Positions 701-18,277 of a stretch of DNA of 64,000 nucleotides are shown one piece after another. The stretch covers positions 37,882,001-37,946,000 of the forward strand of contig NC_135763.1 of the NCBI RefSeq assembly GCF_052425735.1, in the 5' to 3' direction. Position 1 is the stretch's first letter, and every line of letters starts with the position of its first letter. Position numbers and translations under genes: made by a program. A model generated the notes under the pieces. It worked only from the letters and a program-made list of their open reading frames with translations, ran no database searches and had not been told where the DNA came from. This DNA comes from Oculina patagonica (Eukaryota).

Positions 701-1800
701 AGTAGTAAGGACCGCTCTCCTGGCGGTCGACCAATCACAGAGCAGCATTTCTGCGCATGCGTAAAAGGGAAAACCACGTGACTTAGGAGGGTGATGACGT
801 CATAGGAGTCGGTCCCAGTCCCCAAACGGTGGGAATGAACTCGGTCCCAGTCCCCGCGCGGAAAAAAACGACAAGGCAAGAAAATAGGTGTAAAAGGGCA
901 AACCACGTGACTCAGGGGTGTGTTGACGTCATAGGAGTCGGTCCCAGGACGCTTGAGACTCGGTCCCAGTCCCCGGAGGGTGGGAATGAACTCGGTCCCA
1001 GTCCCCGCGCGGAAAAAAACGACAAGGCAAGAAAATACCAATCACAGAGCAGCAGTGGTGCGCTTGCCTTTAGAGAGAAAATCACGTGACAGAAGGGTGA
1101 TGACGTCATGAGAGTAGGTCCCAGGACGCTGGAGACTCGGTCCCAGACCCCAACGGTCATAAACTCGGTCCCAGGCCGTCCTCAGCCACAGTGTCGTCCC
1201 AGACCTTTTTCAAGACATGTCGCCTCCTACGTCATCGGTCCCAGACCCACCCGACCACGCCCTAACTCGCTCCCAGTCCACCTCGGTCACACTCTCGTTC
1301 GTCCCCAGACCCCTGCAAGACAACACACGCAGTTTCTAGTTTCACATTTTAATAACTGGATTAAAAAAAACCTGTTGTTTACAAACGAGACGTGTGCGAA
1401 GCCCTAGTGGCCGCGCACCCTGGGAATGAACGTGTACAAACTTAGCAAGACCACCATCCTATAGATATGGTTCACAAAGTGCCATACTGTCCTTGTGGTA
1501 TTTGGAACTCAATACTTTGCACTAAACGCACGTGCAGATGAGTCTACGCGATACACTCACGATTGATAATTAGTTACCTCTCTTGCGAAGACCACAAAGG
1601 TTGTCTCAGAAAGCGCCATGCCTTCCTTATGGTATGGTTCTTCCTGGCACTAAACGCATGCGCAGATGAGTCTGCATTGCTTTTTCTAGGTCGGCGATTC
1701 TGAGAAAACGCACGCTTGTGAAGTATTAAAAAAAAAGAAACACGTCAGAGAGGGGGGATGAGGGGGTATCCCCCTTTCTCGGGTGTACTGGGAACGAGTA
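701..1800 (+). repeat. Left terminal inverted repeat of the Maverick
   Basis: Reverse complement of 19942-21042. About 5 substitutions and a 1-bp homopolymer indel seen by eye. Confidence 0.97.
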
Positions 1801-1946
1801 CGAATCGAGCGGTGAGAGTGTTTATATCTCAAAAGATGTCGACAAGTAAGTTATTAAATATTCAGTTATGGAGAACGATCAACGTGGGTATGATTGAAAC
1901 TATATCAACGTGTTGCGGTAGGTTTCCTATCTGGGGCATGGTGGTA

Positions 1947-4900
1947 TTACGTACTGAAGTAACCATAGGGGTATGACATAAACGTGTTGGCATCTACCAC
2001 TCTCTTGTCGAAAACCACTTGATAGCGCTTGATCTCCGTCACAGTGTTCAGGGTTTTGGTGGTTTTGTCTCGAGTGATCTTGTGAGGGTTAAACACGGCA
2101 ATGCTCCTCGTTTCGGCCAAGGGTTCTTTCACTTCGGATTTGACGTTGTCTTTCAATGTCTCAAAGTTGAGATGGGCGGATCCTCTCACGTTCAAGGAAA
2201 AACCCCTTACTTTACAACAGGTTTTTCCCAGCTTCGTCTTGTAGGCATAGTTTTTTGGTCCCGCGGCAGCAAATTCCACAATGAAGTCATCATCGTCTAG
2301 TTCGTTCGTGAAGTCTCCCAGGTAATCACCCAATGGCAAGGAGGGCTGGCCTTCTCGAAGTTTGTAGATGAGGGAATCTGTGTCAAAATACAAGATCTGT
2401 TCGGGTTGTAGGATGGAAAGACCTTCTTGGTACAGCTTCAAACGGGCCCAGGTGGTCGTGAAACAGGCAACAAATATGTTGATATCCGGTTGAACGTTGG
2501 CGCAGTCCTCCTTGCACTTATGGACCACCTCCAACATGTCTGGATTGACGACCCGTATGTCGTGGATGTCTCGAGAATCGTCTCTTAACAAGTCGTGAAA
2601 CTCAGCTGCAGAGGTAAAGGCTTCGACTTGGGTCTTGTTGCCTCTCTGGCCATACTTGCCCCAAAAACTATTGAGCATGATCTTGGCCAGGGATCTGCGT
2701 CCGGGGTTCTTTTCAATTTTGTCCGGATCCAACTGGAGGCCTTCTTTGAGAAAGAACTGTCTCAGGTATTCCTGGCGCTTGTCTGGATCGTCGCCCACCC
2801 AGGAGGGCCAACCGCTCGCTTCCTGCTTCATCTTCAGGAAGGTGTTGACATACTCTTTAAACATGGTGTTGGATTTGCGGTCAAAGTGCCACACCTCGTG
2901 AATGTGCTCCACCACGTACCCTTGCTTGACGGCCTCTTCCAACTCGGGCGTGCACCACGTTCCGGTCAGTTGGCGTTCTTGGGGGCTGTGAGCGCATTTG
3001 GAGGATCGTTGGGTCAATGGCTTGGGCTGCTCCACTTCCACGCAGGTACGGCAGAGGGGGAATGTCAGTTTACCCCCTTGGCGATAGGGCAACACGGGGC
3101 TGTACAACCCGTAAGGTGGCGTCACCGTACACTTTGCCAGACCGAAGAATTGTGAAATGTTCGTGTGTCCCGGTTCTAGGATCACTTCGGGATGCCCTTG
3201 AGGGTAGTCACAGTTTTTGTTGACCCAGGGGTAGAGAGAAGTAAAGTCCACGTACCGGATCTCCTCTTCAGGTTCAGCAAGGTCATAGAGGCGGACGGCA
3301 TTGGTTCTACCGCCAAAGAACGCGTCTCGGGGCTCCAAGCGGGAGTTGATCGCCAACGAGTCCACGAACGATTTCACCTCGGGATCACTGTCCTTGAGCG
3401 CTTTCCACTGGCATTCCCACATTTCTACCACGCGGTAACCCGCATCCCGGATCCGTTGCGTCTTTTGTTGCGTTTCCGCGTACACGTCCCTCAGACTTCT
3501 GTCGCCCATCTTCCGGTGCTTCTGATCGCGATTGGGAAAACAGTCAGGACAGCCGTGAAAGTAACAGCCGTGGAACTCGTAAACCGTGCGATCCTCGTAC
3601 CCGTCGACGTTGATCAGACGGCCTCCAATCCACAAGGCTCGTTCTCCACCGTTCCTGGCGTGGCGGATGGTACCCTGCGTCTGGCTGTCTTGATACAGCA
3701 ACCATTCCAGCGAGACGTGCGAGTGAGGTTTGCCCTTGCCTTCCCAGCCTCGTACCGGTTCAGAAGCCAACGTCTGTTCTTGCATGCACTTGGTGCGGTA
3801 GAAGCGATTACAGGCGGAGGCAATGGTGAGGCACTTGTCCATGGGATCGAACCCGGCAATGGCTTGAAACTCTGCCCGGAAGACCTTGCACCCTTCGTGC
3901 AACAGCTCCACGTCGGAGCGACAGTAGTCGACAAGTTCGTTCCGAAAGTGGAACTCGTAATTCTCCGCCACGCGTTCTTCGTACCACTTGTCGAATTCGG
4001 CTTTCCTGGCAGCGGACATTCCCTCTGGATCGTAATAGTCTCTGGCAGGCATGCTTCCCACATAGTTTTGATTTTCCTTCGTGTTAAAGAAGTGGGGGAA
4101 AAACCCCTTTTTTTGCTCGGTGAGGCCAAAGGCTTTGGGAAAGGTAGCAAGGCTCATCTGCAGAAAACACATGGAGTCCTTAAAGGTGATGTTTGGGATG
4201 TTCATGCTGATTATTTTGGCACCATTGACGACTTGTTCAGGGCAGATGGCTTGGTCGTACAACTCGTTTAATATGAAATACGAGTCGTACCCTTGGAAGT
4301 TATGAGCGACAGCTATCACGCGGTGTTGTTCGGCGATCTCCCTCAACCAAGCGAGAAAGTCTTTGACACAAGTCTCTCCCTCGAAGGTTCTCCTCTCGTC
4401 GGTGTCTCCTCTCAGGGCGCAAATCAAGTTGGCGACGTGCTGGCCTTCTTCCTGCCTGGCTTCGGCGTCCCAACTGACGAACACGGGTGGTTGGTCTTCT
4501 TTGCGTTGACCGGCGCTGGTTCTCTTGCGGTTCTGTTTTTGTTCCACCTTGAGAGGATTTTGTATGTAGCACTGGTGGTAACGAAGATCTTGGTATTCCT
4601 TGCAGGACGGGCAGGAAGCGTGGCCGCACTTGTGACTGTTTCTCAGTTCATAGTCACCGTACGTCTTGAAACAGCCCGCACACCGTTTGTGCTTGTCACA
4701 CACACTGTTCCTCTTGTCTCGGGCCATGTCTTTGCCGGTGTCGGTGCGACTCTTGTGCAATTGAAGACAGCGGGTTCCAAAAAAGTCCCGTTGACAGTCT
4801 GTACAGTTCACCCTGGGTACAGCGTGGGCTCTCTTCCATTCGTGGCAATCTGTCTGATGGCAGGCGGCGCATCTGGCACCCGGGCAGCGGTGCTCCTTAG

Positions 4901-5816
4901 GATTGTTATGGGAGAACCCTTTTTCGCATTGGGTGCAATAATAACTCTTGCCAAAAAATCCGCCTAGGGAAGTGCAGCCGTGGTAATGGTCATGGTGCTT
5001 GATCAAGATCAAACGTTTGTCGTCGGGGCGTTGTGCTCCTTTGAAGATGATCTGGTACCCATGTTGGACAGACACCACCACAATCTGGTAGTCGTTCAAG
5101 TGCGCTTGAAATTTGGCCAATTCGTCCAAGCCGCAAGGACCTTCTGGCACGTCGGACAAACGATGCAACTCTCTGGCTGCCTTTTCTTGGATGGGGTATG
5201 CTCCACGGACATTCTTGTAATACCAATGGTCGTGGCCGTAATCGACGCGAGCCTTCATCATCACCAAGGCGCGGGCACAACATAACTGGTCGGTGTTTTT
5301 GATTTTCAGCACACATTTTTTGCGGTCCAGGATCTCCTCAATGGGATCCAAACCGGGTTTGTATTTCTGATGGTCTCCCCCTCTGCCTGGATCTTGTATG
5401 TGAGACACGTTTAGGTTGAACGTGTCGTCGACTTGAAAAGTCTGATTACTGTTCAGCATGTCACTGATTTGTTTTAACAACTGTTGGGCAGCGACGGTGT
5501 TTTCTCTCCACTCTCCCACTCTCAGCCGTCTGGAATGAAAAGCATTTTGAATCCTGTTACTGTTGATGTTGATCAACAAGTGATCGTCATCTCCAACGGC
5601 TCCATCATCCAAGATATGTTGCTGCACGGCTCTCTGCAGGGCTCTGGCAATCTGCTGCACCAATATGGGTCGCGGTCCTAGGGGAGCGGATTCCACTGCG
5701 GCACCACCACCACCTGTCTGCACCAATCGTCCGGTAAAGTTTCTGATGTGGAGACCAAATCTCCTGACTCGCCGATCTACATGGGCTCTCAGTTGAAATT
5801 CAAAAGGAACATCCAT
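1947..5816 (-). CDS. Protein-primed family B DNA polymerase (pPolB), main exon
   Basis: 1289 aa with exonuclease motifs (WDAE, AHNFQGYD, YCRSD), polymerase motifs (DFTSLYP, KIMLNSFWGKY, YFDTDS, KNY), an inserted VDG...EFHGCYFHG nuclease-like segment and an N-terminal Cys-rich region. Confidence 0.97.
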   Translation of the reverse strand: MDVPFEFQLRAHVDRRVRRFGLHIRNFTGRLVQTGGGGAAVESAPLGPRPILVQQIARALQRAVQQHILDDGAVGDDDHLLININSNRIQNAFHSRRLRVGEWRENTVAAQQLLKQISDMLNSNQTFQVDDTFNLNVSHIQDPGRGGDHQKYKPGLDPIEEILDRKKCVLKIKNTDQLCCARALVMMKARVDYGHDHWYYKNVRGAYPIQEKAARELHRLSDVPEGPCGLDELAKFQAHLNDYQIVVVSVQHGYQIIFKGAQRPDDKRLILIKHHDHYHGCTSLGGFFGKSYYCTQCEKGFSHNNPKEHRCPGARCAACHQTDCHEWKRAHAVPRVNCTDCQRDFFGTRCLQLHKSRTDTGKDMARDKRNSVCDKHKRCAGCFKTYGDYELRNSHKCGHASCPSCKEYQDLRYHQCYIQNPLKVEQKQNRKRTSAGQRKEDQPPVFVSWDAEARQEEGQHVANLICALRGDTDERRTFEGETCVKDFLAWLREIAEQHRVIAVAHNFQGYDSYFILNELYDQAICPEQVVNGAKIISMNIPNITFKDSMCFLQMSLATFPKAFGLTEQKKGFFPHFFNTKENQNYVGSMPARDYYDPEGMSAARKAEFDKWYEERVAENYEFHFRNELVDYCRSDVELLHEGCKVFRAEFQAIAGFDPMDKCLTIASACNRFYRTKCMQEQTLASEPVRGWEGKGKPHSHVSLEWLLYQDSQTQGTIRHARNGGERALWIGGRLINVDGYEDRTVYEFHGCYFHGCPDCFPNRDQKHRKMGDRSLRDVYAETQQKTQRIRDAGYRVVEMWECQWKALKDSDPEVKSFVDSLAINSRLEPRDAFFGGRTNAVRLYDLAEPEEEIRYVDFTSLYPWVNKNCDYPQGHPEVILEPGHTNISQFFGLAKCTVTPPYGLYSPVLPYRQGGKLTFPLCRTCVEVEQPKPLTQRSSKCAHSPQERQLTGTWCTPELEEAVKQGYVVEHIHEVWHFDRKSNTMFKEYVNTFLKMKQEASGWPSWVGDDPDKRQEYLRQFFLKEGLQLDPDKIEKNPGRRSLAKIMLNSFWGKYGQRGNKTQVEAFTSAAEFHDLLRDDSRDIHDIRVVNPDMLEVVHKCKEDCANVQPDINIFVACFTTTWARLKLYQEGLSILQPEQILYFDTDSLIYKLREGQPSLPLGDYLGDFTNELDDDDFIVEFAAAGPKNYAYKTKLGKTCCKVRGFSLNVRGSAHLNFETLKDNVKSEVKEPLAETRSIAVFNPHKITRDKTTKTLNTVTEIKRYQVVFDKRVVDANTFMSYPYGYFST

Positions 5817-5951
5817 CTTGAAACAAAGGAAACAAGGTAATGAATGTCCGTAATTTTCTGTTTTACTGTACAGCTCATTAGAATATTACACAGCATATTA
5901 GCATACGAAAAACGGGTTACACGAATTCACTCTACTCTAATAACTAGTTAC

Positions 5952-6211
5952 CTCTTCCTCGGAGTCTTCTTGACTTTGAATACCGCGCTGTTCACCACTT
6001 GTGCTTGCACCCTGCGATGGCCAAAACATGGTATTAATAAAAAAACGCACGTGAATTGAACACGACCAAACGCATCTCATCAACGTACCTCTTCCAATCT
6101 AGCCCTCTTGGGACTTTCTTCGACCATCTCAGGTTCCATAATTTCTCCTTCAACCTCTTCTTCTATCTTACCAGAGTCTTCTTTTTCTCCACCAGTCTTC
6201 TCTTTTTCCAT
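5952..6211 (-). CDS. Predicted upstream coding exons of polB (6211-6089 and 6011-5952)
   Basis: Canonical GT/AG sites, exon lengths 123 and 60 nt, both introns phase 0, joining in frame to the ATG at 5816. Confidence 0.7.
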
Positions 6212-6273
6212 ATCTTGATGAGTGCTTAGACCAAACAAAGTTTGCGAGTGACAAAAGTCAAGCGGAGCTCTCG

Positions 6274-6558
6274 TTATATAGAGAGAATTAACCAATCAGC
6301 TTTTACTTTTTATTATAACCAATTAAATACTCGGTCCATTCTTTTTCGAGGTGACGTGTACAGAATCAACCAATGAGATCTCATGATCAATGTCGCCCAC
6401 GTGACGGGATTTTCCCCACAAGGGTAAAATCCCAAGCTCACGGGATTTTCCCACAAGGGTAAAATCCCGGGATTTTCCCCCAAGGGAAAAATCCCGACGC
6501 ACGCGCGTGGAGAATCTTTCTCGGAATTCTCGGAACCCGCGTGTGTTCATTCTCGGAA
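6274..6558 (-). promoter_or_regulatory. Putative polB promoter/enhancer (TATA, CCAAT, kB-like and GAS-like sites)
   Basis: TATATAA on the minus strand at 6280-6274. CCAAT at 6292, 6319, 6370. GGGATTTTCC x3 with inverted partners at 6406-6495. TTCTCGGAA x3 at 6518, 6527, 6550. Confidence 0.6.
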
Positions 6559-7062
6559 AAGTACAGTAAAAACGGACGAAGTTTTCTTGTCGGATTACAG
6601 CTCTTTTCAAGAAGGATATAAGCTTTAAGGTGAGCTAATGTCTCCATACTCTACTGTACAAGACGAAGAGCGTTTGATAAATTGTATTTACTGCGAAAAA
6701 TAAATTTGGTTACGTTGTAAATCTTGACGAGTGGTTTGTTTTTGTTCGTGCGGCCATCATGAACCCTGCATAGTAAAGAAGAAGAAGGTTTTAGACCCGT
6801 TCATTTCGTTCAAGGTTTTTTGGTCTAGTTTTGTTTATGGTCAAAAAAAGAAGAAACCAAACTTTACGAATGAACAAGTCGTTTTTGGTGGACTGAATTA
6901 TTCTTTTAAGCGAAATTGCTCGCGCAGTTGTCGTTGTCTTTCATAAACAACAACGCCTTCATCTTTTCTTTTTGCGGTCTCAAAATCGAGGGAACATCCC
7001 ACTATGATTCAGAAAAAAATAAAACCTAGCCACCTAGAAATGAAGCTTAAACGTTGTAAATC

Positions 7063-7985
7063 CTAAACAAGTGTGTCACCGCCTCCGTTGTGATTTTTCA
7101 CCGGTCGCGAAAAATATAATTTTAGCGAGCGGTTCATTTGACCGTTGTTCAAATGCATTGTTTCTCGAGGAAAAAAATTTTGTTTCGGCCCTTAAATCAA
7201 AGAGATGTCCAACCATGAATGGTATTAATTTAGTAAAACGCAAAGCAAGCCATTGAGCCGACTCTTTTACATTTTTAGACTCTAAACAAGTGTGTCAACG
7301 ACTTTGTTGTGATTTTTACCGTTCGCGAAAAAATATAATTTTAGCGTGAGGTTCGTTTGGCCGTTGTTCAAATGCATTTTTCTCGAAGAAAATTTTTTTT
7401 TTGCGGCCCTTATATCAAAGGGACGTCTAACCATGAATGATATTATTTCGATGAATGTTATTGAGCCGAAAATTTCATATTTTTGGACTCTAAGCACAAG
7501 TGTCATCGACTTTGTTGTGATTTTCACCGTTCGCGAAAAAATATAATTTAGCGTACGGTATTTGTTGTTGTTTAAATGCGTTTGTTTGTTTGTTTGTTTT
7601 TGCGGCCCTGAAATGAAAGGGACGTCCAACCATGAATGATATTATTTTAGTGAATCTCAAAGCAAGTCATTGAGCCGGATCTTCACATTTTTACACCCTA
7701 AACAAGTGTGTCAACGAGTTTGTTGTGATTTTTCACCGGCCGCTAAAAATATAATTGTTGTAGGTGGTTCATTCGGCCGTTGTTAAAATGTTTTTTTTTT
7801 TTTGCGGCCCTTAAATCAAAAAGGACGTCCAACCATAAAAGATATTATTTCGATGAATGTTATTGAGCCGAAAATTTCATATTTTTGGACTCTAAGCACA
7901 AGTGTCATCGACTTTGTTGTGATTTTCACCGTTCGCGAAAAAATATAATTTAGCGTGCGGTATTTGTTGTTGTTGTTAAAGCGAT
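7063..7985. repeat. Non-coding tandem array, ~4.5 units of ~195-220 bp, inside the Maverick
   Basis: Units start at 7063, 7282, 7490, 7698 and 7892 (CTAAACAAGTGTGTCA or CTAAGCACAAGTGTCA). 7440-7570 and 7842-7972 are nearly identical. Confidence 0.9.
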
Positions 7986-8035
7986 TGAATACCATACTCT
8001 CGTAATTCAGTTTCGGCATGGAGCAATTTTTAAAT

Positions 8036-8557
8036 TTATTTAACAACAAAAGTGTGATACCATAACCAGAAAGCATGACATTCGGTCATTGGACAATGTC
8101 CTTCGTATAGATGAAAACCGCAACTAGGTAAAGGTTCTACAATTGTCTCTTTCAACACGTCGTATTTCGGACATCCGTACAGTTCTAAATTCACGCTAGG
8201 AATGTTCAGTTTGTTCAACAAGTCTCTTTCGACGTGTCCTCCCTTGTAAGCCACCACGGTTCTCTCGGGGGTTTTGGTCTCCTCGTACAAATCCCACATC
8301 ACCTCCTCCACCCTGTCATACTCGTAGGCCTTTTCTTCCTTTCTGGGTTGATACGTCAGTCCGTGCACGTTGTATTTGACGTAAGACACGGTTTTTCTGT
8401 CTCTGGAAGATAAGTTGCACCACGGCATTCTCATGTAGAAAGCATGGCGTCCGAACTTTTCTTGCCAAGTGTAATAACCCAACTCGCGTACTCGAAACGT
8501 CTTCTCCACAAAGTAACCTTCCAAGTCCAAGATCATGCACACATTTTCCGGAGTCAT
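8036..8557 (-). CDS. DEDD/DnaQ-like nuclease-fold protein (possibly Maelstrom-like)
   Basis: ILDLEG motif I, VAYKG, C-terminal CxxH...HC...C cluster, and AATAAA at the stop. Confidence 0.6.
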   Translation of the reverse strand: MTPENVCMILDLEGYFVEKTFRVRELGYYTWQEKFGRHAFYMRMPWCNLSSRDRKTVSYVKYNVHGLTYQPRKEEKAYEYDRVEEVMWDLYEETKTPERTVVAYKGGHVERDLLNKLNIPSVNLELYGCPKYDVLKETIVEPLPSCGFHLYEGHCPMTECHAFWLWYHTFVVK

Positions 8558-8622
8558 GCCAGAGCCAACTGCACTCTGATGCTTGACGTAGAAAATATAT
8601 GAAAATGTTTAAACTGTAAATC

Positions 8623-9531
8623 TCAATGATCCAAATTACGATATTGTTTCTGGGAAATGCGCTTCAGATACAGTTGATTTCTCAGCATTTTCTCTTCATC
8701 CGAGTCGTACTTCACGCCAGCCAATTCCGGGGGAAGAATAATTTTCCCTTCTCCATCCACCCAAAACTTTTGCTCTTGACACTGTTTGACCAATGACTCG
8801 TCCAAGGGAAGATCACCAATCCAATCCTTGACCGGGGGTGGGTAGTGTTGTACTTTGAAGGCGGGTCTCCCATCCAGAATTCGTTGCGGTCTATCCACCA
8901 CGTCTTGTCCTCTACTGGGGTATCCAAATTCGTTCCTTGAGTCCAGTCCAGACCTTCTCGAGTAGAGGGGATCCTCGTTTCCCACATATTCCTTTCCTTC
9001 CAGCCAGGCTTTGATCTTGCCAAACGGAACACTGTCGGCCCATTGGAAGAACCGGCATTTACCCTTTCTGCACTTGAGGTAGATCCTGTCCGGGTTGCTC
9101 TCTGATTTCGACATGCTCAGAATGAGACTCTCGTTGCAGTAACATTTCATCTTATCCATGTTCCAATAATAGTAAGCCGGTAATTGTTGATTGACCGCCA
9201 CCACGTACTGGTCAATGTGGGCGCTACCGGTGCAAATGAAACAGATGGTGCCTTCGCTCGTGTGGGGGCAAAAGTAGAACTCCCATCCCCCGTCCGTCAT
9301 TCTCTTGGTCAGCGGTTCTTTGTGGACGGGGCAAACCGGGTCGCGCTCCGTGTCGTCAAAGGTCTGTTGTAGGAACTGGTCGGGGTCGAAAATTTCACCC
9401 TCCTCCAACACTTCCTCTTTCAACTCCATCTTCTTCTTTGTAGGATGTCTCTTTTTACGGGGGACTTTGGGTTTCTTGGGGTTTCCAGTCCCTCTCCTCT
9501 GTCGCTTTTTTCGGGGTTCTACCAAGTCCAT
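8623..9531 (-). CDS. GRF-type zinc finger protein with basic NLS
   Basis: CYC-x13-NPDRIYLKC...CRFFQWAD fits zf-GRF. A second degenerate CxxH...C...C module lies upstream. N-terminus is K/R-rich. Confidence 0.75.
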   Translation of the reverse strand: MDLVEPRKKRQRRGTGNPKKPKVPRKKRHPTKKKMELKEEVLEEGEIFDPDQFLQQTFDDTERDPVCPVHKEPLTKRMTDGGWEFYFCPHTSEGTICFICTGSAHIDQYVVAVNQQLPAYYYWNMDKMKCYCNESLILSMSKSESNPDRIYLKCRKGKCRFFQWADSVPFGKIKAWLEGKEYVGNEDPLYSRRSGLDSRNEFGYPSRGQDVVDRPQRILDGRPAFKVQHYPPPVKDWIGDLPLDESLVKQCQEQKFWVDGEGKIILPPELAGVKYDSDEEKMLRNQLYLKRISQKQYRNLDH

Positions 9532-9559
9532 GGTGCGTCGACTGAGGTCTAGTAGAGGC

Positions 9560-9700
9560 CGGCGCTAGGCTTTTATACTCTACCCTCGGAATGACGTCAA
9601 TACGCACGAACCAACCAGAGAGGTAACACGTGACCTCTTCCGACCAACCGGCAATGACCCAGGTGACGTCATCCAACGTATAAAAAGAGCTGCGCGTCCA
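9560..9700. promoter_or_regulatory. Symmetric bidirectional viral promoter
   Basis: TATAAAA on the minus strand (~9570-9576) and plus strand (~9680). TGACGTCA at ~9592 and ~9664. Central CACGTGAC. It lies between divergent ATGs at 9531 and 9722. Confidence 0.65.
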
Positions 9701-9721
9701 TTTGTCGACTCAGTTGCAGCG

Positions 9722-9997
9722 ATGGAAAGCACAGACAGCGATTCCAGCCAAACTCAAACTCAAACCCAACAAGTCAACGGTGTCTTTGTACAAGGAGATC
9801 CCAAGGACTGGGAACCATTGCCTTACTATAGGGATCTAAAAAGGGACGATTTTCAGTCGGACGAAAATTACCTATTGGCGCGCGCGAAACGTGGCATGGA
9901 AGCAGGCTACACGTTAATGCAGTGTCAAGAGCATTGGATGTGCGATCTCGAGAGGGCATTACACAAAGGTTTGGCCGAAGCAAGCCAAGAGCAGTAA
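9722..9997 (+). CDS. Hypothetical Maverick protein (91 aa)
   Basis: ATG ~40 nt downstream of a TATA box; abuts the next ORF. Confidence 0.6.
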   Translation: MESTDSDSSQTQTQTQQVNGVFVQGDPKDWEPLPYYRDLKRDDFQSDENYLLARAKRGMEAGYTLMQCQEHWMCDLERALHKGLAEASQEQ

Positions 9998-9998
9998 C

Positions 9999-10769
9999 AT
10001 GGGTACGAGAGAAAACTGGATGGACCTGGAACAACGCCTCTTCTACACCAATTGTACAAAGCTAGAAAAAAAGATCCAGACCGACACGGGAATGAGTACG
10101 TTGTCGTTAGACTATCCCACCACCATACCCGAAAACATTCCAAGGAGAGTCTATGTCTTCGAGGACATGGTGAAAGAGCGCGGGTGTGCCAAAAACCGCG
10201 TCACCGAAAGTGAATGGCTCAAAGAGAACCCTCACTGGAAGGGAGCCGTCCTAACGACTCTCAAAGACATTGGGCACGGTTATCTCTGGGATAGACATTG
10301 GAATGAATTTGTCTACGTGCCATTACAGCGAGCCTTTTTCTTCGCGACGTCTCGCAACCCGCCGCCCATTGGCAACGGCGTCTCGTTCTGGTTGAACGCG
10401 AACGTCGGCGACTTTGACGAACGGAGTGGTTTAGACGATCTCATCGCCCCGTTGAGAGCGAGTGTAGCCCTAAGCCAGACATTGTCTGCTTTCTTGAAAC
10501 AACCCATCACGGTCGACGCAAACACGTACGAAGAACTGTGCAACCAACTGGCAACTCAAGTAAAATTGCAACGCCTAGAAAGCAATCGCTGGCAAGAAAT
10601 AGCGGATAGACTGTTAGACAGAGATCTCTGCAACCGTTGCGCCATGGATAAAGACGAAGCTTACCTGGGCGACGACTACCAAAAAGCCAAACTGTGGAGA
10701 CCTAGAAGTTGTGAAACATGTACAAAATCTTTTGATAACATATTTATTGATGCAGGCTATTTAAATTGA
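9999..10769 (+). CDS. Hypothetical Maverick protein (256 aa, C-terminal CxxC...CxxC)
   Basis: Long ORF with CNRC and CETC pairs, followed by AATAAA at ~10779. Confidence 0.7.
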   Translation: MGTRENWMDLEQRLFYTNCTKLEKKIQTDTGMSTLSLDYPTTIPENIPRRVYVFEDMVKERGCAKNRVTESEWLKENPHWKGAVLTTLKDIGHGYLWDRHWNEFVYVPLQRAFFFATSRNPPPIGNGVSFWLNANVGDFDERSGLDDLIAPLRASVALSQTLSAFLKQPITVDANTYEELCNQLATQVKLQRLESNRWQEIADRLLDRDLCNRCAMDKDEAYLGDDYQKAKLWRPRSCETCTKSFDNIFIDAGYLN

Positions 10770-10796
10770 CGTTGTATAAATAAAAGTTCATTTGTC

Positions 10797-11108
10797 ATGG
10801 ATCTGTATGGAAAGTGGGAGTGGTTGAAAAGATTGTGCGAGAAAGCGTATGCTGAATTTGGGAGGGGTATAGATATACCGGAAGATACAAGTGACTCCCC
10901 CTTGAGAGTGTTCGAAGCCACTCACATAGAAATAAACTATTTCAGATTGATACCGTTTATATTATGGTTGAGACATTTCAAGGATCCAGCCGAGCTGTTT
11001 GCTTCTATTTACAAACTTCATCCGACCACGATCGAAGCAGCAGCTCATAAATTACACGGCACTTATATGAGGGTGATCAGAGCGTCGTCGACATGCCAAA
11101 GAAGCTGA
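10797..11108 (+). CDS. Hypothetical Maverick protein (103 aa)
   Basis: Fills the gap before the integrase and overlaps its start. Confidence 0.5.
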   Translation: MDLYGKWEWLKRLCEKAYAEFGRGIDIPEDTSDSPLRVFEATHIEINYFRLIPFILWLRHFKDPAELFASIYKLHPTTIEAAAHKLHGTYMRVIRASSTCQRS

Positions 11109-12172
11109 AAAAGGATGAAAAAATACTTTCGGACTACCACGATCCCAGTCAACCGGGTAGCTTGGGTGGGATAGCAAGATTCGCCAAATCGCACAAGATA
11201 TCCGTCGACACAGCCAAAAAAGTATTGGAGCGCGATTTGGGTTATACCCTTCACAAACCGCGCAGACGTCGTTTCGCCACGTTACCGGTCCTGGTGTTTA
11301 ACGTCGACCAGCAGTGGGTAGCCGATTTAGTGGAAACGCAACCGTTGTCCAAATACAACAAGGGTCACAGATATCTACTCAACGTGATCGACGTCTTGTC
11401 TAAATATGCCTGGGTGGAACCCCTAAAAGACAAGACGGGAAAAACGGTGTCGGACGCCTTTGCCAAGATTTTGAAACGAGCCGATGGACGCAAACCTCAG
11501 AACCTACAGACCGACGACGGGAAAGAATTTTACAACAAGACGTTTGCCGCGTTGATGAAACGAGAAGGCATCCACCACTTTTCCACGGCCGGAGAAACCA
11601 AAGCCAGCATCGTGGAACGCTTCAACCGCACTCTCAAGGAACGCATGTACAGATACTTTACCGCCAAGAACACGCTCAGTTACCTACCTGTACTCCAGGC
11701 CTTGGTGAGAGGTTACAACGGATCCCACCATCGTAGCATCGGCACCAGCCCCGAGACAGTGAATGCGAGCAACGAAGGAAAAGTGTGGGAACGCCTGTAC
11801 GCGAAGAGATTGTCGTCGGGTAAAAGAGAACGAAAAACCCCGCTAAAAGTAGGAGAACGCGTGAGATTGAACAAGAAATTTCGCACGTTCGAGAAAGGGT
11901 ATTTACCCGGCTGGACCGAAGAAGTGTTTGTGATACGAGAGGTGCGTCGGGGACCACCCGTCACGACTTACAAGATCCAAGAGTTGGACGACACCCCCCT
12001 TCGCGGTACGTTTTACAAGGAAGATCTACAAAAAGTCGCAGTGTCCGACGACGATGTCTTCAGGGTAAACAAGATCGTCAAACGAAAAGGAAATAAAGTC
12101 TTGGTGCACTGGAAAGGCTGGCCAGACAAGTACGACAGCTGGATCGAGAAGACGGCTCTAAAAAAATCATGA
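11093..12172 (+). CDS. Retroviral-like (rve) integrase with C-terminal chromodomain-like region
   Basis: WVADL...QTDDGKEF...VERFNRTLK DDE triad; C-terminal VLVHWKGWPDKYDSWI. Confidence 0.96.
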   Translation: MPKKLKKDEKILSDYHDPSQPGSLGGIARFAKSHKISVDTAKKVLERDLGYTLHKPRRRRFATLPVLVFNVDQQWVADLVETQPLSKYNKGHRYLLNVIDVLSKYAWVEPLKDKTGKTVSDAFAKILKRADGRKPQNLQTDDGKEFYNKTFAALMKREGIHHFSTAGETKASIVERFNRTLKERMYRYFTAKNTLSYLPVLQALVRGYNGSHHRSIGTSPETVNASNEGKVWERLYAKRLSSGKRERKTPLKVGERVRLNKKFRTFEKGYLPGWTEEVFVIREVRRGPPVTTYKIQELDDTPLRGTFYKEDLQKVAVSDDDVFRVNKIVKRKGNKVLVHWKGWPDKYDSWIEKTALKKS

Positions 12173-13200
12173 GCCACGAGGAAGGATTTTACGTCACGTT
12201 ACCCAGTCACAGCAGCGGAACCGAGTTTCCAGAGAATAGAGCAAACTCTTTCAAGGTGCGATTACCTCACCCGCTACGATTAGAAGGAACCGGTTGGAAA
12301 GTGGGATTGAGTAGCATTTCCGTGCCAGATGCCAGCATCGACTTAACTCGCTTTAAGTCGTTCAAGTTTCCTCTCTTGAGTGCTCAGTGGATGCTCAAGC
12401 GCAAAGACAACGAGGGTCGCGTGCAAAGCAAGTCGGTGACCACCGATCTGACGTTCCAGGACATTCTATATGACGACAACATCGTGGATGGCCTCAGTTT
12501 CATGAAAGCCCTGGTCTTCAAGTTCGATCAAGTCAAAGAATACAAGCGTATCGTGGGAGACTTGACCAAGTCGCCCGATAATGGAAAGCAGTGGGAATAT
12601 ACGTTCAAGTGGGAAGGTGAAGAACTAGTCCTCGACAACTCGAACTTGGACGTCTCGGAAGTGAAAACTGAAGGCGTCCCATATTACATGTCTTTCAACG
12701 AGGATTTGGCCTTTGACATGGGATGGGTAAAAAAGGACGAGAAAGAAAACGTGTTTCTCGGGCCGAACCTGAAGCCGGAATGCCACCACGCTACGATACC
12801 CGATCCTATAGACGTGGATGATTTTGGAGAGGGCAAGAAAAATTTCTGGGTTGTTGAGAATGGACAGCTTTTCTTGAGTTGCTATTGCAACTGGCGCTTT
12901 GTGAAACTCAACAGAGCCTTCCAAAAAGTGATTGGAGATGCATCGCGTACGCTTTTCGTTTACTCAGATGTGGGTGGTAGTTCCGTTGTGGGAAATCAAG
13001 TCACGGATCTGTTGCGGGAAATTCACTTTCAACGTGAAGGAAAAGGGATCAAGTACTTTGAACCTCTCCACATACAATATATTCCACTCCGCAACCAGAT
13101 CGTGGACATTATTGAAACGCAAGTGAGCGAGACTACAGGTAAACTGGTGGATTTTGGCGAAGGCAACACGATCGTGACCTTACATATCAAGCGAACATGA
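12169..13200 (+). CDS. Minor capsid protein/penton (PX)
   Basis: FYVTLPS...FPENRANSFKVRLP...WKVGL N-terminus and LFVYSD...LLREI...YIPL...VTLHIK C-terminus, typical of Polinton penton. Confidence 0.85.
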   Translation: MSHEEGFYVTLPSHSSGTEFPENRANSFKVRLPHPLRLEGTGWKVGLSSISVPDASIDLTRFKSFKFPLLSAQWMLKRKDNEGRVQSKSVTTDLTFQDILYDDNIVDGLSFMKALVFKFDQVKEYKRIVGDLTKSPDNGKQWEYTFKWEGEELVLDNSNLDVSEVKTEGVPYYMSFNEDLAFDMGWVKKDEKENVFLGPNLKPECHHATIPDPIDVDDFGEGKKNFWVVENGQLFLSCYCNWRFVKLNRAFQKVIGDASRTLFVYSDVGGSSVVGNQVTDLLREIHFQREGKGIKYFEPLHIQYIPLRNQIVDIIETQVSETTGKLVDFGEGNTIVTLHIKRT

Positions 13201-13454
13201 GAGGCGGTGCCCTGACGCGTTTCACACCGGATCCTCCACCTCAAGAGGGGAACGGATTTTTGGCCGACATCGTGAGAGAGTCTCTGGGTGGAGCCGTGAG
13301 AGGATTTAAGAGTGGGCGCGGCGTCGCGGACCGCATTCGTAAAGCGGGTCAAGGAGCCAAGAGTGGTCCTAAACGAGTCGTGAAACGCAAACTGAAAAAC
13401 GTCATAGAACGAAAAGTCAAGAGAAAACTGAACGACATCTTTGCCGAAAAATGA
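13197..13454 (+). CDS. Small basic core-like protein
   Basis: K/R-rich with MRGG and QEGNG putative adenain sites; ATGA overlaps at both ends. Confidence 0.65.
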   Translation: MRGGALTRFTPDPPPQEGNGFLADIVRESLGGAVRGFKSGRGVADRIRKAGQGAKSGPKRVVKRKLKNVIERKVKRKLNDIFAEK

Positions 13455-13687
13455 ATCCCGTTTACTCGCGATCGTCTAGATTGGTCCGATCCAAACGCGC
13501 CCCCGTCAGACAGCGGGGAGAAGGATTCTCACTGGCACTTTTGAACCAGGCCTTGTTGGGACAAAAGAGCCGACGACGAAAAGTACAAAAGGGCGGGTGG
13601 ATAGGTCCCGAGGTCAGAAAGCCTCCTGGCTACGACTGGATACAGACCTTACGGAAGCGCAGTGGAAGAAGGAAGAGAAGACGATGA
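13451..13687 (+). CDS. Small basic core-like protein
   Basis: R-rich with QRGEG and QKGG motifs; ATGA overlaps at both ends. Confidence 0.65.
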   Translation: MNPVYSRSSRLVRSKRAPVRQRGEGFSLALLNQALLGQKSRRRKVQKGGWIGPEVRKPPGYDWIQTLRKRSGRRKRRR

Positions 13688-15087
13688 CCGAAACCATCTC
13701 GAGTGCCTACCCGCAGTCGAGACGCGAGGCCAATCCTCGATTGGATCTATTCGCCGTACCACCGACAGACGTCAGCGTCTCGTCGTATCGGATGGTCCCC
13801 GTTCAGACCTACACCACAGGCATCAATCCGGTGGAGTTTCAGATCGACCCCCAAGAAGATTACATCGATCTCAGCCGTAGCTTTTTCGAGGTAGAATTGC
13901 AACTGAAGAAAGACAACGATGAGAACGTGGCAGCTGCCGACAAGCTGTGGCCCGTCAACAATCTAGCCCATTCTCTGTTCAAGCAAATCAGCGTGCGTCT
14001 CAACGGTACTCTCATCAGTCCCCAGACGGACACGTACCATTACAGAGCCTTCTTGGAAACGTTGCTGAATTACGACAGACGTGATGGAGAAACCATTTTG
14101 AAACCTCAAGGATGGTACAATCATATCGATTTCCCAGCCACGTGGACGGACAATAACACGAACACTGCAGCCAACGCTGGAGCTGGACACGCAGACTATG
14201 TAGCCCTGACCGCCAATCACAAGGAGGCTCTCAAGAACTCTAAAGCAGAACAAGCCAATTACACGGAAGGCAAGCGACACGTGTTGCGTTTCAAGCCCCT
14301 CATCGAAGTGTTTCATCTGAGCAAGTTGTTGGTACCCAGAGTGCAAATAGGAATACAGATGTACTTCAATTCTCCCGACGTGTTCTTGAACGGAGTGGGT
14401 CTTGCAGGAAAGTTGACGGCCGAGGAAGTCAAAGTTCGATTGTACCTGTGTCAAGTGCGTCTCAATCCCACGACGTACAGGAGACTGATGGATGAGATGA
14501 CCACCAAGAGTCAAGTGGTGAGTTACCCGACCGTGAGAAGCGAGATTCGGACCTTCAACATGCAGGGAGATCAACGACGGTACGAATGCACCAACTTGTT
14601 CCAAGGAAGAATTCCCAACCGCGTGATCGTGGGTATGGTACTGTCCACAGCCTTCACCGGGAACGTGGTCAACGATCCCTTCTGTTTTCAGAAGTTTGGA
14701 ATGAGCAGCATAAAACAACTCGTGGGAGGAGAAGAGTATCCTTACGAGACGCTAGAGTTGGTCCACAACGATGGCACCAAAGATCTCAGAGGGTACCACC
14801 GTTTCTTGCAAGCCACCGGATGCCTGTGCAAGCAGCAAGGAAACATGGTGAGAGGTGACGATTGGGGACAAGGAAAGAATTGCACGTTATTCGTGTTCGA
14901 CAACGTGGCCAATGGATGCGTGGACAGTTACAGGATGAACCCCAAGCAAGCCGGAAATCTACTAATAGAGCTGAACTTTGGAGCCAACCCAGCTGTGAAC
15001 TTGACCATCATCGTGTACGGAGAGTTTGAGAATCTCTTGGAGATTGACAAGAACAAAGCCGTGTTGTACGACGTGTACCAGCGTTAG
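13684..15087 (+). CDS. Major capsid protein (PY, double jelly-roll)
   Basis: LDLF..PPT, YIDLSRS, NNLAHSLFKQI, YHYRAFLETLLNY and IPNRVIVGMV motifs of Polinton MCP. The ATG at 13684 is preferred over the 13597 start given in the ORF track. Confidence 0.92.
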   Translation: MTETISSAYPQSRREANPRLDLFAVPPTDVSVSSYRMVPVQTYTTGINPVEFQIDPQEDYIDLSRSFFEVELQLKKDNDENVAAADKLWPVNNLAHSLFKQISVRLNGTLISPQTDTYHYRAFLETLLNYDRRDGETILKPQGWYNHIDFPATWTDNNTNTAANAGAGHADYVALTANHKEALKNSKAEQANYTEGKRHVLRFKPLIEVFHLSKLLVPRVQIGIQMYFNSPDVFLNGVGLAGKLTAEEVKVRLYLCQVRLNPTTYRRLMDEMTTKSQVVSYPTVRSEIRTFNMQGDQRRYECTNLFQGRIPNRVIVGMVLSTAFTGNVVNDPFCFQKFGMSSIKQLVGGEEYPYETLELVHNDGTKDLRGYHRFLQATGCLCKQQGNMVRGDDWGQGKNCTLFVFDNVANGCVDSYRMNPKQAGNLLIELNFGANPAVNLTIIVYGEFENLLEIDKNKAVLYDVYQR

Positions 15088-15089
15088 TG

Positions 15090-15659
15090 ATGGAGAAAGT
15101 GACTTTGAATAACGTGCAATTGGATCAGTTGGCCAGACATCACCCTTGGTTGAAACCTTATTTTTACGGGACAGTGGCCTGCGATCGATTACCTCGCAAA
15201 CCATTCAAGACGGAAGCCCGCGGGTACATCGTCAACACCGATCCTCACTACATGCGCGGTCGGCATTGGATCGCGCTGTGGACGAATGGAAACGTGTGCG
15301 AAGTATTGGACAGTTACGCCTTACCCCTAGAAGTGTACCAGACGGCGCAACCGTTGCAAGATTGGTTGGACGCTCATTGGAAGTACGTGGAGCGCAACGG
15401 ACAGAGTCTACAATCGTTGTACAGTCAGAGCTGCGGCGATTACGCGTTGATGTATCTCATCGATAGGGCCGAAGGACGTAGCATGAGTCAATTCGAAGCG
15501 AGATTCAAGAAACACGATTACGTGTACAATGATCATAAAGTTGGGCAAATGTTGAAGCAATTGATCTCGAAGGAAACGTCGTGGCACAAAATTTGTCAGA
15601 TGGAATACCATCAGGATTGTGAACCGTCTCTCTGCGGTGTAAGACACTTGTTGTTGTGA
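15090..15659 (+). CDS. Adenain-like cysteine maturation protease
   Basis: IVNTD...GRHWIAL (His), DSY (Asp), QSLYSQSCG (Gln/Cys). Confidence 0.93.
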   Translation: MEKVTLNNVQLDQLARHHPWLKPYFYGTVACDRLPRKPFKTEARGYIVNTDPHYMRGRHWIALWTNGNVCEVLDSYALPLEVYQTAQPLQDWLDAHWKYVERNGQSLQSLYSQSCGDYALMYLIDRAEGRSMSQFEARFKKHDYVYNDHKVGQMLKQLISKETSWHKICQMEYHQDCEPSLCGVRHLLL

Positions 15660-15791
15660 GATGACAAATAAAAACGTGGAAATAAATAAGGTGTGTGTCG
15701 TCTGTCGCTCGGGAGATCGGGATTCGTTGCAGACTTTTTTTCTGCAACATGCTTATATCATTGCTCGTTTTTTGACGAATGTCATTTCGCC

Positions 15792-16457
15792 ATGGAGCGC
15801 GGTGAAGCCTTTAGCTTTCGGATGCCCTCTAGCATTTTGATCGTGGGCCCCTCTAGCTGCGGAAAGACTTGTTTTACCGAGTCGGTACTTTTGAACCACT
15901 CAAAAGAGTTGTTTAGTACACCCCCTGAGACCATTCATTACTGTTTTGGGGCTTGGCAAGACGGTTTCGCGCACATGAAAAAGCGAGGCGTGAAATTTCA
16001 CGAAGGGATTCCCGAAGAAGTAGATTTGACCAAATGGTCTCCCCGTGGAGGGGTGATGGTATTGGACGATCTGATGGAAGAAGGAGGAAACGACAAGAGA
16101 GTATTGGATCTGTTCACCAAACTTTCCCACCACAGGAACATCACCGTCCTGTACTTGTGTCAAGACATGTTTCCGCCGGGAAAATACGCCAAGAGCATTT
16201 CTCGAAATGCGCATTACATCGTGGCTTTCAAGAACCCTCGCGATCAATTGGGCATGAGGAATTTACTGTTACAAGCGTTTCCCTCCCGATGGCAAGATGT
16301 GATGGACGTCTACACCAAGACGACGGAAAGACCCTTTGGTTACATGGTATTGGATCTACACCCTGCCAGTGGCGACGACAGACGGATTTTTAGCCACCTC
16401 TTAAAAGACGAGGGATGCATGAGATGTTACAGATTCGTTCGAGATGTTCGTACGTAA
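15792..16457 (+). CDS. A32/FtsK-like packaging ATPase
   Basis: Walker A GPSSCGKT, Walker B MVLDDLM, SHHRNITV..LCQ, ISRNAHY. First ATG at 15792. Confidence 0.94.
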   Translation: MERGEAFSFRMPSSILIVGPSSCGKTCFTESVLLNHSKELFSTPPETIHYCFGAWQDGFAHMKKRGVKFHEGIPEEVDLTKWSPRGGVMVLDDLMEEGGNDKRVLDLFTKLSHHRNITVLYLCQDMFPPGKYAKSISRNAHYIVAFKNPRDQLGMRNLLLQAFPSRWQDVMDVYTKTTERPFGYMVLDLHPASGDDRRIFSHLLKDEGCMRCYRFVRDVRT

Positions 16458-16683
16458 CGATCACGTGTGGCACGCGTTCTTGGACCTGTGCAGTCGTCAT
16501 TTCGAGCGTATGAGAGAAGAGGACATGGATTACGACGCCATGCAAACCGTGCTACATTTGGCCGAAAAGCGCCAGATGTGGAAATTCGTGAGAGAATATA
16601 ACGAGACTTACTTCAGCGAATTGATCCAGACATTAGAAGAGAGAGCTAGAAAGACATGTCAAGACATTCGCCAGCAGGAGTAG
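16444..16683 (+). CDS. Hypothetical Maverick protein (79 aa)
   Basis: Tiles between the ATPase and the next ORF. Confidence 0.5.
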   Translation: MFVRNDHVWHAFLDLCSRHFERMREEDMDYDAMQTVLHLAEKRQMWKFVREYNETYFSELIQTLEERARKTCQDIRQQE

Positions 16684-17057
16684 GAACCAGTCCTAGTGCC
16701 ATTCCAATCGTCGACGTCAACCGAGGGGGATTGGAACAGACATTGGATCGAATCGACCCCATAGTCCTTAGACGGTACTTGGATCAATTACCGTCTCCTG
16801 CAGTGGGTACGGGAACTTTGAGACCTTCTTCCTCGAGGTCCAACGTACCTGCTGGTCAAGGAACGCTAACGGGTGGTCCACACCAATTGAATCAAGACGA
16901 CATGCAACGTCAATTGCAAATGCTGTTCAACGATCAACGTCAAGTGGCGGCTGGACGTCGCATCGCAGGCATCACCACGACAAACACCATCACTACGACC
17001 TATAAAGACGGGGGACGACCGACCGTTCGTCGTACCTCGACGAGAGTGAGCCATTAA
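16656..17057 (+). CDS. Hypothetical Maverick protein (133 aa)
   Basis: Tiled ORF with a Thr/Arg-rich C-terminus. Confidence 0.55.
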   Translation: MSRHSPAGVGTSPSAIPIVDVNRGGLEQTLDRIDPIVLRRYLDQLPSPAVGTGTLRPSSSRSNVPAGQGTLTGGPHQLNQDDMQRQLQMLFNDQRQVAAGRRIAGITTTNTITTTYKDGGRPTVRRTSTRVSH

Positions 17058-17059
17058 AG

Positions 17060-17554
17060 ATGTCCCTACTAAACGGTTCGAAGACGAACTTGGATCCAGA
17101 CCTGTTACACAGATTGGACGGATTGTATACCTTTTACCACAAAAAGTGGTGGTGTCATCGTCAAATGTTTTACCATTTTAAGTGGTGTCATGCTTCATTG
17201 AATGCTTTGGCTTTGTTCATCGTGGCAGCGGGTGTCATTGCGGGTTCCCTTACAGAAAATAGTGTTATTGTGGCATGCCTAACTTCAGCTGGGACTGTCG
17301 TCAAGGGCTGGAACGATTTCAAGAAATATTCGTTCAAAGTGGACGTATGTCGTTTTGCCTACACCAGCTACGACAAGACGTTGATCGAATTGAGAACGTA
17401 CGCGCGCGGTCTTCCGATGGACGAACTAGAAGGATTCTTGATCAAGATGCAAACTCTAGATGACACGATCACCGATTTCACGCCGCCCGTGGCCGACAAG
17501 TACGTGCAAGCGTACGAACGACAACACGATAAATCCGAAGGTACCCCCGTCTGA
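17060..17554 (+). CDS. Predicted membrane protein with hydrophobic hairpin
   Basis: LNALALFIVAAGVIAGSL and SVIVACLTSAGTVV segments flanked by charged helices. Confidence 0.65.
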   Translation: MSLLNGSKTNLDPDLLHRLDGLYTFYHKKWWCHRQMFYHFKWCHASLNALALFIVAAGVIAGSLTENSVIVACLTSAGTVVKGWNDFKKYSFKVDVCRFAYTSYDKTLIELRTYARGLPMDELEGFLIKMQTLDDTITDFTPPVADKYVQAYERQHDKSEGTPV

Positions 17555-17572
17555 AGTGACAGTTATGGTAGG

Positions 17573-17794
17573 ATGGGAAGAACGAAACGTAAGGCCAGAA
17601 GAAAGAGGCAGCGAGGTGGGGCTCTCGCGAGACGTAAACATCGTTTGGTGGACAAGATAGCCGAGGGGGCCAGCATGTTTCTCTCGGGTCCTTCACCCAC
17701 ATTCTTCACGTTGGGTGGTAAATTGGCCAGTCAAGGATTTAAAGGGATAATGGATAATGTAAATCATTATAGACGTAGACCGCGACGACGATAG
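17573..17794 (+). CDS. Small basic core-like protein
   Basis: Poly-R N-terminus followed by QRGG and an amphipathic segment. Confidence 0.6.
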   Translation: MGRTKRKARRKRQRGGALARRKHRLVDKIAEGASMFLSGPSPTFFTLGGKLASQGFKGIMDNVNHYRRRPRRR

Positions 17795-17798
17795 GACC

Positions 17799-18005
17799 AT
17801 GAGGAGAAAGAAACGTGTGACGCAAAGGCGGAGACGTGCTGGCAGGAGAAGAATAGGACAGAAGGGTGGTATTTTACCCTTAGCAGCCTTGATACCAGCT
17901 TTGATCGCGGGTGGAAAAGCAATCGCTTTGGGTGCTGCATCGGGTGCTGCAGGTTGGGGTGCAAAGAAAGCCTTGGATGCAGCCACTCGAAAGAAAAAGA
18001 GATAA
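17799..18005 (+). CDS. Small basic protein with post-cleavage hydrophobic helix
   Basis: Poly-R followed by QKGG|ILPLAALIPALIAGG. Confidence 0.65.
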   Translation: MRRKKRVTQRRRRAGRRRIGQKGGILPLAALIPALIAGGKAIALGAASGAAGWGAKKALDAATRKKKR

Positions 18006-18073
18006 AAACACTATAAGAGGATGGGGGCATTGGGCGTCACCGGTAGTTACAACAGACTGCATTCTGTGACAAG

Positions 18074-18277
18074 ATGGTGCGAGGAAGAAAGATAGTAAGG
18101 AGAAGACGAAAACAACCTAAAAGAGGACCCGTGTGGAGAGGAGAGGGTTTATTGGACATACTCAAGTTTGCCGGCAAGTTAGGTTATAAATTGGGAAAGG
18201 ACAAACACTATAAGAGGATGGGGGCAAAGGGCGTCACCGGTAGTTACAACCGACGTCCAGCCCCGTGGGAAGTATGA
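18074..18277 (+). CDS. Small basic protein with amphipathic helix
   Basis: Poly-R followed by WRGEG|LLDILKFAGKLG. Confidence 0.6.
   Translation: MVRGRKIVRRRRKQPKRGPVWRGEGLLDILKFAGKLGYKLGKDKHYKRMGAKGVTGSYNRRPAPWEV

Follow-up and report, generated by a model that had tools for sequence, protein, structure and literature searches.

Tandem kB sites stand in the LTR enhancers of HIV-1 and XMRV. The ie1 promoter of WSSV is described as acting through shrimp STAT and Dorsal/Relish, with the host immune response being used for viral gene expression (PMC4728583, PMC3171479), and only three out of 40 WSSV promoters for which kB sites were predicted are reported to respond to Dorsal (PMC3171479). For Mavericks, a vertebrate survey could only suggest a giant virus as the trigger (PMC8097293). 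Polintoviruses are reported to be transcribed in corals, and their genes in Stylophora to be expressed alike in heat and control samples, grouped by colony, in a data set with which a statistical test was impossible (PMC11131425). The word "promoter" is missing from the main texts of that study and of the account of Alpha adintoviruses (PMC8502044), and no report of host-factor sites in Maverick promoters was found in the open literature, searched by titles and the starts of abstracts with subscription papers outside its scope. Here we describe a Maverick of the coral Oculina patagonica in which kB-like and STAT-type words stand together upstream of the polymerase gene. The window, i.e. the whole stretch of 64,000 nt that was analysed (contig NC_135763.1), contains the element with the following parts:

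701..21042, no strand: Maverick/polintovirus of the Alpha-adintovirus type, 20.3 kb, with AGTAGT termini
701..1803, no strand: left terminal inverted repeat of about 1.1 kb, 99% complementary to 19939-21042
1947..5816, minus strand: polB main exon, protein-primed family B polymerase (PF03175, E 7e-47)
6636..7980, no strand: non-coding block that travels with the module described below, 77-79% identical in family 2
8036..8557, minus strand: ORF of 173 aa, DEDD/Maelstrom-like (atlas score 0.88, a lead only)
8623..9531, minus strand: GRF zinc-finger ORF (Pfam)
11093..12172, plus strand: rve integrase with chromodomain (PF00665, E 3e-13)
13684..15087, plus strand: major capsid protein, double jelly roll (alignment-based model, pLDDT 86.8)
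15090-15659, plus strand: adenain-like protease (Peptidase_C5, E 0.011, below cut-off)
15792-16457, plus strand: A32-like packaging ATPase (Pox_A32, E 0.08, below cut-off)
19484..19849, plus strand: PLA2-like (PLA2X) gene (PF08398)

The element is flanked by the 6-bp target-site duplication CACATG (695-700 and 21043-21048). Together with this duplication, the terminal inverted repeats with AG(T) ends, the combination of PolB and rve integrase, and the double jelly-roll capsid identify it as a Maverick/Polinton, while a pfam03175-type PolB and the PLA2X gene are the traits of Alpha adintoviruses; an N-terminal OTU domain on PolB had no match in the Pfam scan. The capsid model finds its best matches in the capsids of PBCV-1, iridovirus, Sputnik and mavirus (E 1e-15 to 1e-12), the His/Asp/Cys motif of the protease and the Walker A motif of the ATPase are visible in the sequence, and the core genes have open reading frames. 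In gene set, terminal repeats, 6-bp duplication, PF03175 PolB and PLA2X, the element agrees with what is described for the polintoviruses of stony corals (PMC11131425) and for Alpha adintoviruses (PMC8502044). It is an unremarkable representative of the Maverick/Alpha-adintovirus group.

Several further features of the window were recorded. The ORF at 12169-13200 is by position a candidate for the single jelly-roll minor capsid protein and has no Pfam match, the atlas search gave no lead for the ORF at 9999-10769, and a two-TM ORF at 17060-17554 has a weak SLATT_1 match (E 3e-4, below cut-off). With the DEDD/Maelstrom-like ORF, the element may carry a factor of a small-RNA pathway. Positions 9560-9700, between the two gene blocks, form a compact bidirectional promoter-like stretch (TATA, CRE, E-box, CRE, TATA). 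At 7054-7980, four to five repeats of about 200 bp form an array; four of them contain an E2F-like TTTTCGCG in an imperfect palindrome, and the array is common to both Maverick families discussed below. In the left terminal repeat, repeated CRE and E-box motifs are found together with a GAS word (1698) and a palindrome of kB consensus (1763). The GAS pair of the terminal repeats, lost or broken in several copies, was set aside as support. A G-rich palindrome with kB consensus marks the inner edge of both terminal repeats (1750-1780, 19962-19992); such a palindrome also lies inside the polB promoter of two relatives, L076 and L078, and a third such site was seen in L152. In host DNA, 28250-29960 contains a 123-bp tandem repeat, short inverted repeats and repeats of 10-bp period, and 46310-47473 is a reverse-transcriptase fragment of a host retroelement.

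The original prediction for this locus concerned a cluster of NF-kB-like and STAT/GAS-like sites upstream of polB, which might wire the provirus to host immune or stress signalling. The features in question are:

6273..6374, minus strand: polB core promoter, with TATA at 6273-6280, CCAAT at 6290, 6317 and 6368, and TGACGT at 6352
6398..6403, no strand: E-box CACGTG, missing in most sisters
6406-6433, 6442-6468 and 6469-6495, no strand: three tandem kB units, each composed of an 11-bp site and a 12-bp site in inverted orientation
6518..6558, no strand: three GAS words TTCTCGGAA, two to four in sisters, the third overlapping the initiator-like TCATTCT

The kB-like words GGGATTTTCCC are indeed present at 6406, 6442 and 6469, each with its inverted 12-bp partner (GGGTAAAATCCC at 6422 and 6457, GGGAAAAATCCC at 6484), and so are the three identical GAS-like words TTCTCGGAA at 6518, 6527 and 6550, which conform to the TTC-N3-GAA consensus and are the only copies of this word on both strands of the 64 kb. 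Agreement with the kB consensus had been claimed for the block as a whole: it holds for three strict GGGRNWYYCC sites, whereas the 12-bp partners deviate from this consensus and contain a GG-N6-CC core, the block amounting to three strict sites and six such cores. The distance of 130-280 bp given to the TATA/CCAAT is borne out for the minus-strand TATA (TATATAAC, 6273-6280), from which the sites lie 126-278 bp away, but only some 30 bp separate the nearest CCAAT from the first kB site. An Rfam search of 5800-8100 returned only mir-4484, whose 23 bits (E 0.44) fall short of the gathering score of 90.

The kB block consists of three copies of one 27-36-bp unit (repeat family D15), and two of the three GAS words are arranged head-to-tail. 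The enrichment check against shuffled sequence was run as 5000 dinucleotide shuffles of 6200-7000, in which at least three kB sites arose twice and at least three GAS words 159 times. These raw figures overstate the enrichment on account of the tandem copies. Since the kB sites are copies of one unit and two GAS words lie head-to-tail, a fair test asks for at least one of each, and at least one kB site plus at least one GAS word was obtained in 134 of 5000 shuffles (0.027). Composition therefore excludes chance only weakly, and the case rests on comparison.

In the coral genome (G000), 33 modules were found by an anchor pattern beside the cluster, of which 32 were analysed, one of two near-identical copies on C1512 being left out. 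Conservation in related elements, one of the checks proposed, was observed: at least two GAS words (TTCN3GAA) occur in all 32 modules and at least three in 25, the strict kB 10-mer GGGRNWYYCC occurs in 25, and at least two GG-N-W4-N-CC cores, a pattern written after the variants were seen, occur in 31. The signature published for Nematostella NF-kB is GGxxxxxxCC (PMC3630861). Among the 27 family-1 modules, in which the number of kB units ranges from one to four, GG-N6-CC is kept in 155 of 166 kB arms and broken in 11. Distinct GAS changes fall six times into spacers and three times into half-site cores (binomial P 0.042, or 0.088 after dropping one likely conversion), evidence which is modest since the region around the GAS words is generally conserved. 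Likewise, with family-1 sisters being about 80-97% identical, much of the retention is due to common descent.

Among 60 stretches around more distant polB matches, the module was found in four, and the other 56 showed no kB cluster within 2.5 kb, a distance that can miss promoters behind long introns and did so for L076. A single GGGAAATCCC occurs in five of these 56. In L076 and L078, an unrelated polB promoter carries a different kB-consensus palindrome upstream of CCAAT/TATA. The kB/GAS feature is specific to its own lineage and not general to Mavericks. The composite kB pattern and polB relatives were both absent from viral_contigs, and the module anchor from metagenome_contigs; as coral host DNA is scarce in these collections and near records are possibly missing, these blanks carry no weight.

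Within its lineage the module does not stay with one polymerase. It precedes polB genes that are 44-97% identical to that of the window, and sisters that are 93-96% identical right of about position 6346 carry other core promoters and a polB of 45-73% identity. A second Maverick family accounts for five of the modules; its PolB can be aligned with that of the window over no more than some 120 residues. On a FastTree tree of 37 polB rows, from which L079 (open frame below 1000 aa) was left out and in which long branches make deep placement unsure, the distribution of the module corresponds to four changes. In four of the five family-2 modules the kB block has been rebuilt with other spacers, the cores being kept while the fold register is shifted and the flanking G lost; in L127, three GAS words are kept and all kB cores are lost. 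What is conserved is a linear word and not a hairpin.

Some observations accompany this exchange. Core promoter and polB are swapped as a cassette at about 6346, with a polB identity of 45%, 65-67% or 73% (L065-L067, L130-L134). The second family (L125, L127, L128 and L129) has a PolB with N-terminal C2H2 fingers, a weak PF03175 match and a different gene order, and a regulatory block of 0.5-0.9 kb is common to both families at 77-79% identity. In L136 and L144, polB breaks off at about codon 155 and is continued by sequence of the right end, with module and right-hand genes kept; L004 and L006 are likely alike, as their polB match stops at the same residue.

Taking these comparisons into account, it is distinctly unlikely that the cluster consists of neutral slippage repeats in a young, recombining family, with a coincidental likeness to kB and GAS sites. 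The 2.7% of shuffles containing one kB unit and one GAS word within 800 bp would be compatible with such an origin, as would the freely varying copy number, the 11 broken arms and the lack of the cluster in most other Mavericks of the genome. However, the family-2 cores survive indels and rebuilt spacers, the GAS changes lean to spacers, a second kB-type word stands in the promoters of L076 and L078, and three GAS words are identical to words at the host STAT locus.

The palindromic arrangement could also be read differently, and binding of a viral protein or hairpin formation had been named from the outset as the alternative. Baculovirus hr repeats offer a precedent for palindromes that serve as sites for an element-encoded protein or as single-strand replication hairpins. 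Every kB unit can fold as a hairpin, the block reaching about -30 kcal/mol, the exact kB composite is restricted to the modules (39 of 39 genome matches), and the element encodes uncharacterised and zinc-finger proteins. Against the fold, arm changes in L017 and L028 are not compensatory, the family-2 core lies in the loop instead of the stem, and L127 has no such hairpin, which weakens the hairpin alternative; furthermore, protein-primed replication begins at the termini. Against a viral protein, the words are the same in family 2, although the stretches read show another set of genes there. The words also match those at host immune loci, which speaks against both versions, and we give little credence to either.

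The coral encodes both host factors in question. NF-kB is represented by an RHD on C4 (E 6e-31) with the intact DNA-contact loop RGFRFRYPCE, and STAT by a STAT_linker match (E 1.6e-5) with flanking DNA-binding and SH2 exons; the STAT_bind and STAT_int HMMs had no match in the genome, in which genes were matched exon by exon. Of seven IRF matches in the genome, six were fetched, one of an identical-scoring pair being left out. In the 1.2 kb upstream of eight immune transcription-factor loci (STAT, NF-kB and IRF) we counted seven kB words against 0.82 expected (P 2e-5) and seven GAS words against 1.15 expected (P 2e-4), values that belong to a 1.2-kb window chosen after looking, a background that is not promoter-matched and unmapped starts. 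The kB word is missing in three of the eight loci, GAS in four, and both in two.

At the STAT gene, four GAS words (TTCTCAGAA twice, TTCTAGGAA and TTCTCGGAA) lie at most 730 bp upstream of the ATG, and these 9-mers are the commonest words of the viral modules plus the L127 variant. At the NF-kB gene, 2.6-2.9 kb upstream of the ATG, TTCTAGGAA is accompanied by a kB word and a 12-bp GGG-W6-CCC, which resembles the viral partner sites and is the sole copy in the 92 kb of host DNA counted. One IRF gene has GAS at -222 and kB at -206, 16 bp apart. What STAT does in an animal that lacks interferon is hinted at by the GAS clusters at host STAT and IRF loci. Across the whole genome, triple-GAS clusters show no enrichment over the reversed control (69 against 91). 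Twelve host clusters of this type from the listed part (L160-L171) were viewed, nine with a Pfam-named neighbour and three without. The neighbours include MOV10, a TENT/TUT-like nucleotidyltransferase, ApoL-lectin and sacsin, and further HIT, BTB-PHR, Ig, TMEM121 and GIY-YIG; MOV10, TENT/TUT-like, ApoL and sacsin we take to be antiviral-type genes.

The host words also bear on whether the sites, although real, are read by other host factors. CSL/RBPJ, NFAT5 and HIVEP-type proteins recognise kB-like words, and BCL6-type proteins and heat-shock factor recognise TTC..GAA. A CSL-type word overlaps the kB unit in 13 of the 32 modules and is missing in the other 19, a second, weak RHD match lies on C7, and TTCCTAGAA equals what we assume to be the BCL6 word. 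Three-pentamer heat-shock elements (inverted nGAAn, 2-nt spacing), in contrast, occur in none of the 32 modules, and the words cluster at the STAT, NF-kB and IRF loci, so a reading by such other factors seems very unlikely indeed.

Towards polB, the module faces a gene with a predicted 5' exon structure:

5952..6011, minus strand: predicted polB exon 2, in frame, phase 0
6089..6211, minus strand: predicted polB exon 1, acidic, ending in the NLS-like PKRAR, with the ATG at 6211

One contig of run X7, a run guessed to be RNA, lacks precisely the 135-nt GT..AG intron at 5817-5951, as a spliced transcript of a sister polB copy would. The 77-nt GT..AG intron at 6012-6088 is a prediction only, and the spliced X7 contig retains part of it. 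It should be noted that no run with a match is recorded as RNA, that 13 of the 18 listed runs are guessed to be RNA, that none has a treatment label and that depths were not taken as expression. Another X7 contig is unspliced across 6359-6950 at depth 41, and the kB/GAS block may thus also be read through. Vertebrate Mavericks are described as intronless (PMC8097293), unlike the coral polB with its predicted 5' introns, one of which was seen spliced. Within polB intron 2, a 90-bp piece (5845-5934) finds matches of up to 97% elsewhere in G000, and its depth in run X17 is very high; this piece is a dispersed host repeat.

In the opposite direction, a second signal borders the module:

6627..6635, plus strand: splice donor AAG/GTGAGC of a predicted divergent transcript, conserved, GTAAGC in L129

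This plus-strand donor (6629/6630) lies 71 bp right of the last GAS word; all 12 aligned modules retain it, one of them as GTAAG. The initiator-like sequence that the third GAS word overlaps lies some 80 bp before the donor. With a conserved donor and a GAS word at an initiator-like sequence, the module probably works in both directions; polB need not be the sole target of the GAS sites, which may act on the divergent RNA. A contig of run X1 departs from the stretch directly behind 6629, which is a weak hint and comes from a single run; X1 is without cover at 6716-6887, where X17 has cover.

One may go further and suppose that host factors bind but that their main target is the divergent plus-strand spliced RNA, or that their effect is repression of polB during antiviral defence. 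The GAS word at the initiator-like sequence, the conserved donor, the departure of the X1 contig and its gap in cover would fit the former, as would the module staying with the right-hand backbone while polB and core promoter are swapped. However, the kB block faces the polB promoter in all 24 modules with a polB match in the mapped stretches or the window, and in family 2 the plus direction leads only to the terminal repeat. For repression, p50-like homodimers are described as having no activation domain in mammals, but in the same source a native reporter was activated by Nematostella NF-kB (PMC3630861). We consider these two readings together unlikely.

We therefore favour, as the probable explanation on the strength of sequence comparison, a model in which binding of host NF-kB and STAT to the block increases adjoining transcription during immune or stress signalling, so that the replicase would behave as an inducible early gene. 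Words, position, retention in sisters, copy-number turnover, travel across polB cassettes and words shared with host loci are the observations that support it. In this model, nuclear NF-kB, as a p50/p52-like homodimer, would occupy the GG-N6-CC cores and activated STAT the TTC-N3-GAA words. The bound factors, together with the CCAAT/CRE/TATA core, would activate the replicase at an early step of replication, by analogy with WSSV ie1, and both polB and the predicted divergent spliced RNA would be raised while immune or stress signalling is on. Slippage or unequal exchange would lengthen and shorten the arrays, which are likely kept because more sites give a stronger response. The immune wiring of the provirus put forward in the original prediction is in this respect partly supported by the motifs kept in sisters and by the words shared with host NF-kB and STAT loci, but it does not extend to Mavericks in general.

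A broader proposal is more doubtful, and we make it only tentatively: coral Mavericks could be immune- or stress-inducible, helper-free proviruses, comparable to prophages, whose NF-kB/STAT sensor cassette is traded between distant families and would launch viral replication on a signal of infection or bleaching in the coral, with about 30 copies seeding immune-responsive enhancers and a spliced outward transcript in the host genome. Published work calls for caution regarding the trigger. Nematostella NF-kB is reported to be needed for antibacterial rather than antiviral genes, and knock-down of Nematostella STAT did not blunt the cGAMP response (PMC8713801). A STAT5A-labelled gene is reported to rise in poly(I:C)-activated Nematostella cells (PMC13319465), and in an anemone at low pH one Polinton transcript and NF-kB were both raised, as a correlation only (PMC6505742). 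The trigger could be bacterial or thermal as much as viral. As to heat, NF-kB activity is reported to rise with heat stress in cnidarian symbioses (PMC13042239) and homologues of interferon-stimulated genes to be raised by heat in hexacorals (10.1101/2024.12.19.629480). A responsive provirus would therefore link bleaching conditions to endogenous virus activity. By naming two host factors and their exact sites, the 250-bp module turns the question of Maverick activation into a testable one.

Compared with known systems, the Maverick module is most readily set beside WSSV ie1, likewise an early promoter with STAT and NF-kB sites in a dsDNA virus of an invertebrate (PMC4728583, PMC3171479). These sources describe WSSV as an exogenous nimavirus whose promoter drives a transactivator and has an experimentally demonstrated function, whereas the coral element is an integrated Maverick, the proposed target is the replicase, the sites form tandem arrays and their function is inferred. 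With the LTRs of HIV-1 and XMRV the module has in common that proviral kB sites lie upstream of a TATA, and NF-kB is reported to raise HIV-1 and XMRV transcription (PMC3171479). Unlike these mammalian LTRs, the coral module is internal, outside the terminal repeats, is paired with GAS words and moves between polymerase cassettes. Endogenous mavirus and PLVs are described as integrated relatives that are switched on conditionally, as proposed for the coral element, but their trigger is a helper giant virus (PMC8097293), while the trigger of the coral element would be host signalling via host transcription factors. By this comparison, the regulatory logic appears to be one already known from WSSV ie1 and retroviral kB enhancers, and its occurrence in a Maverick would be new.
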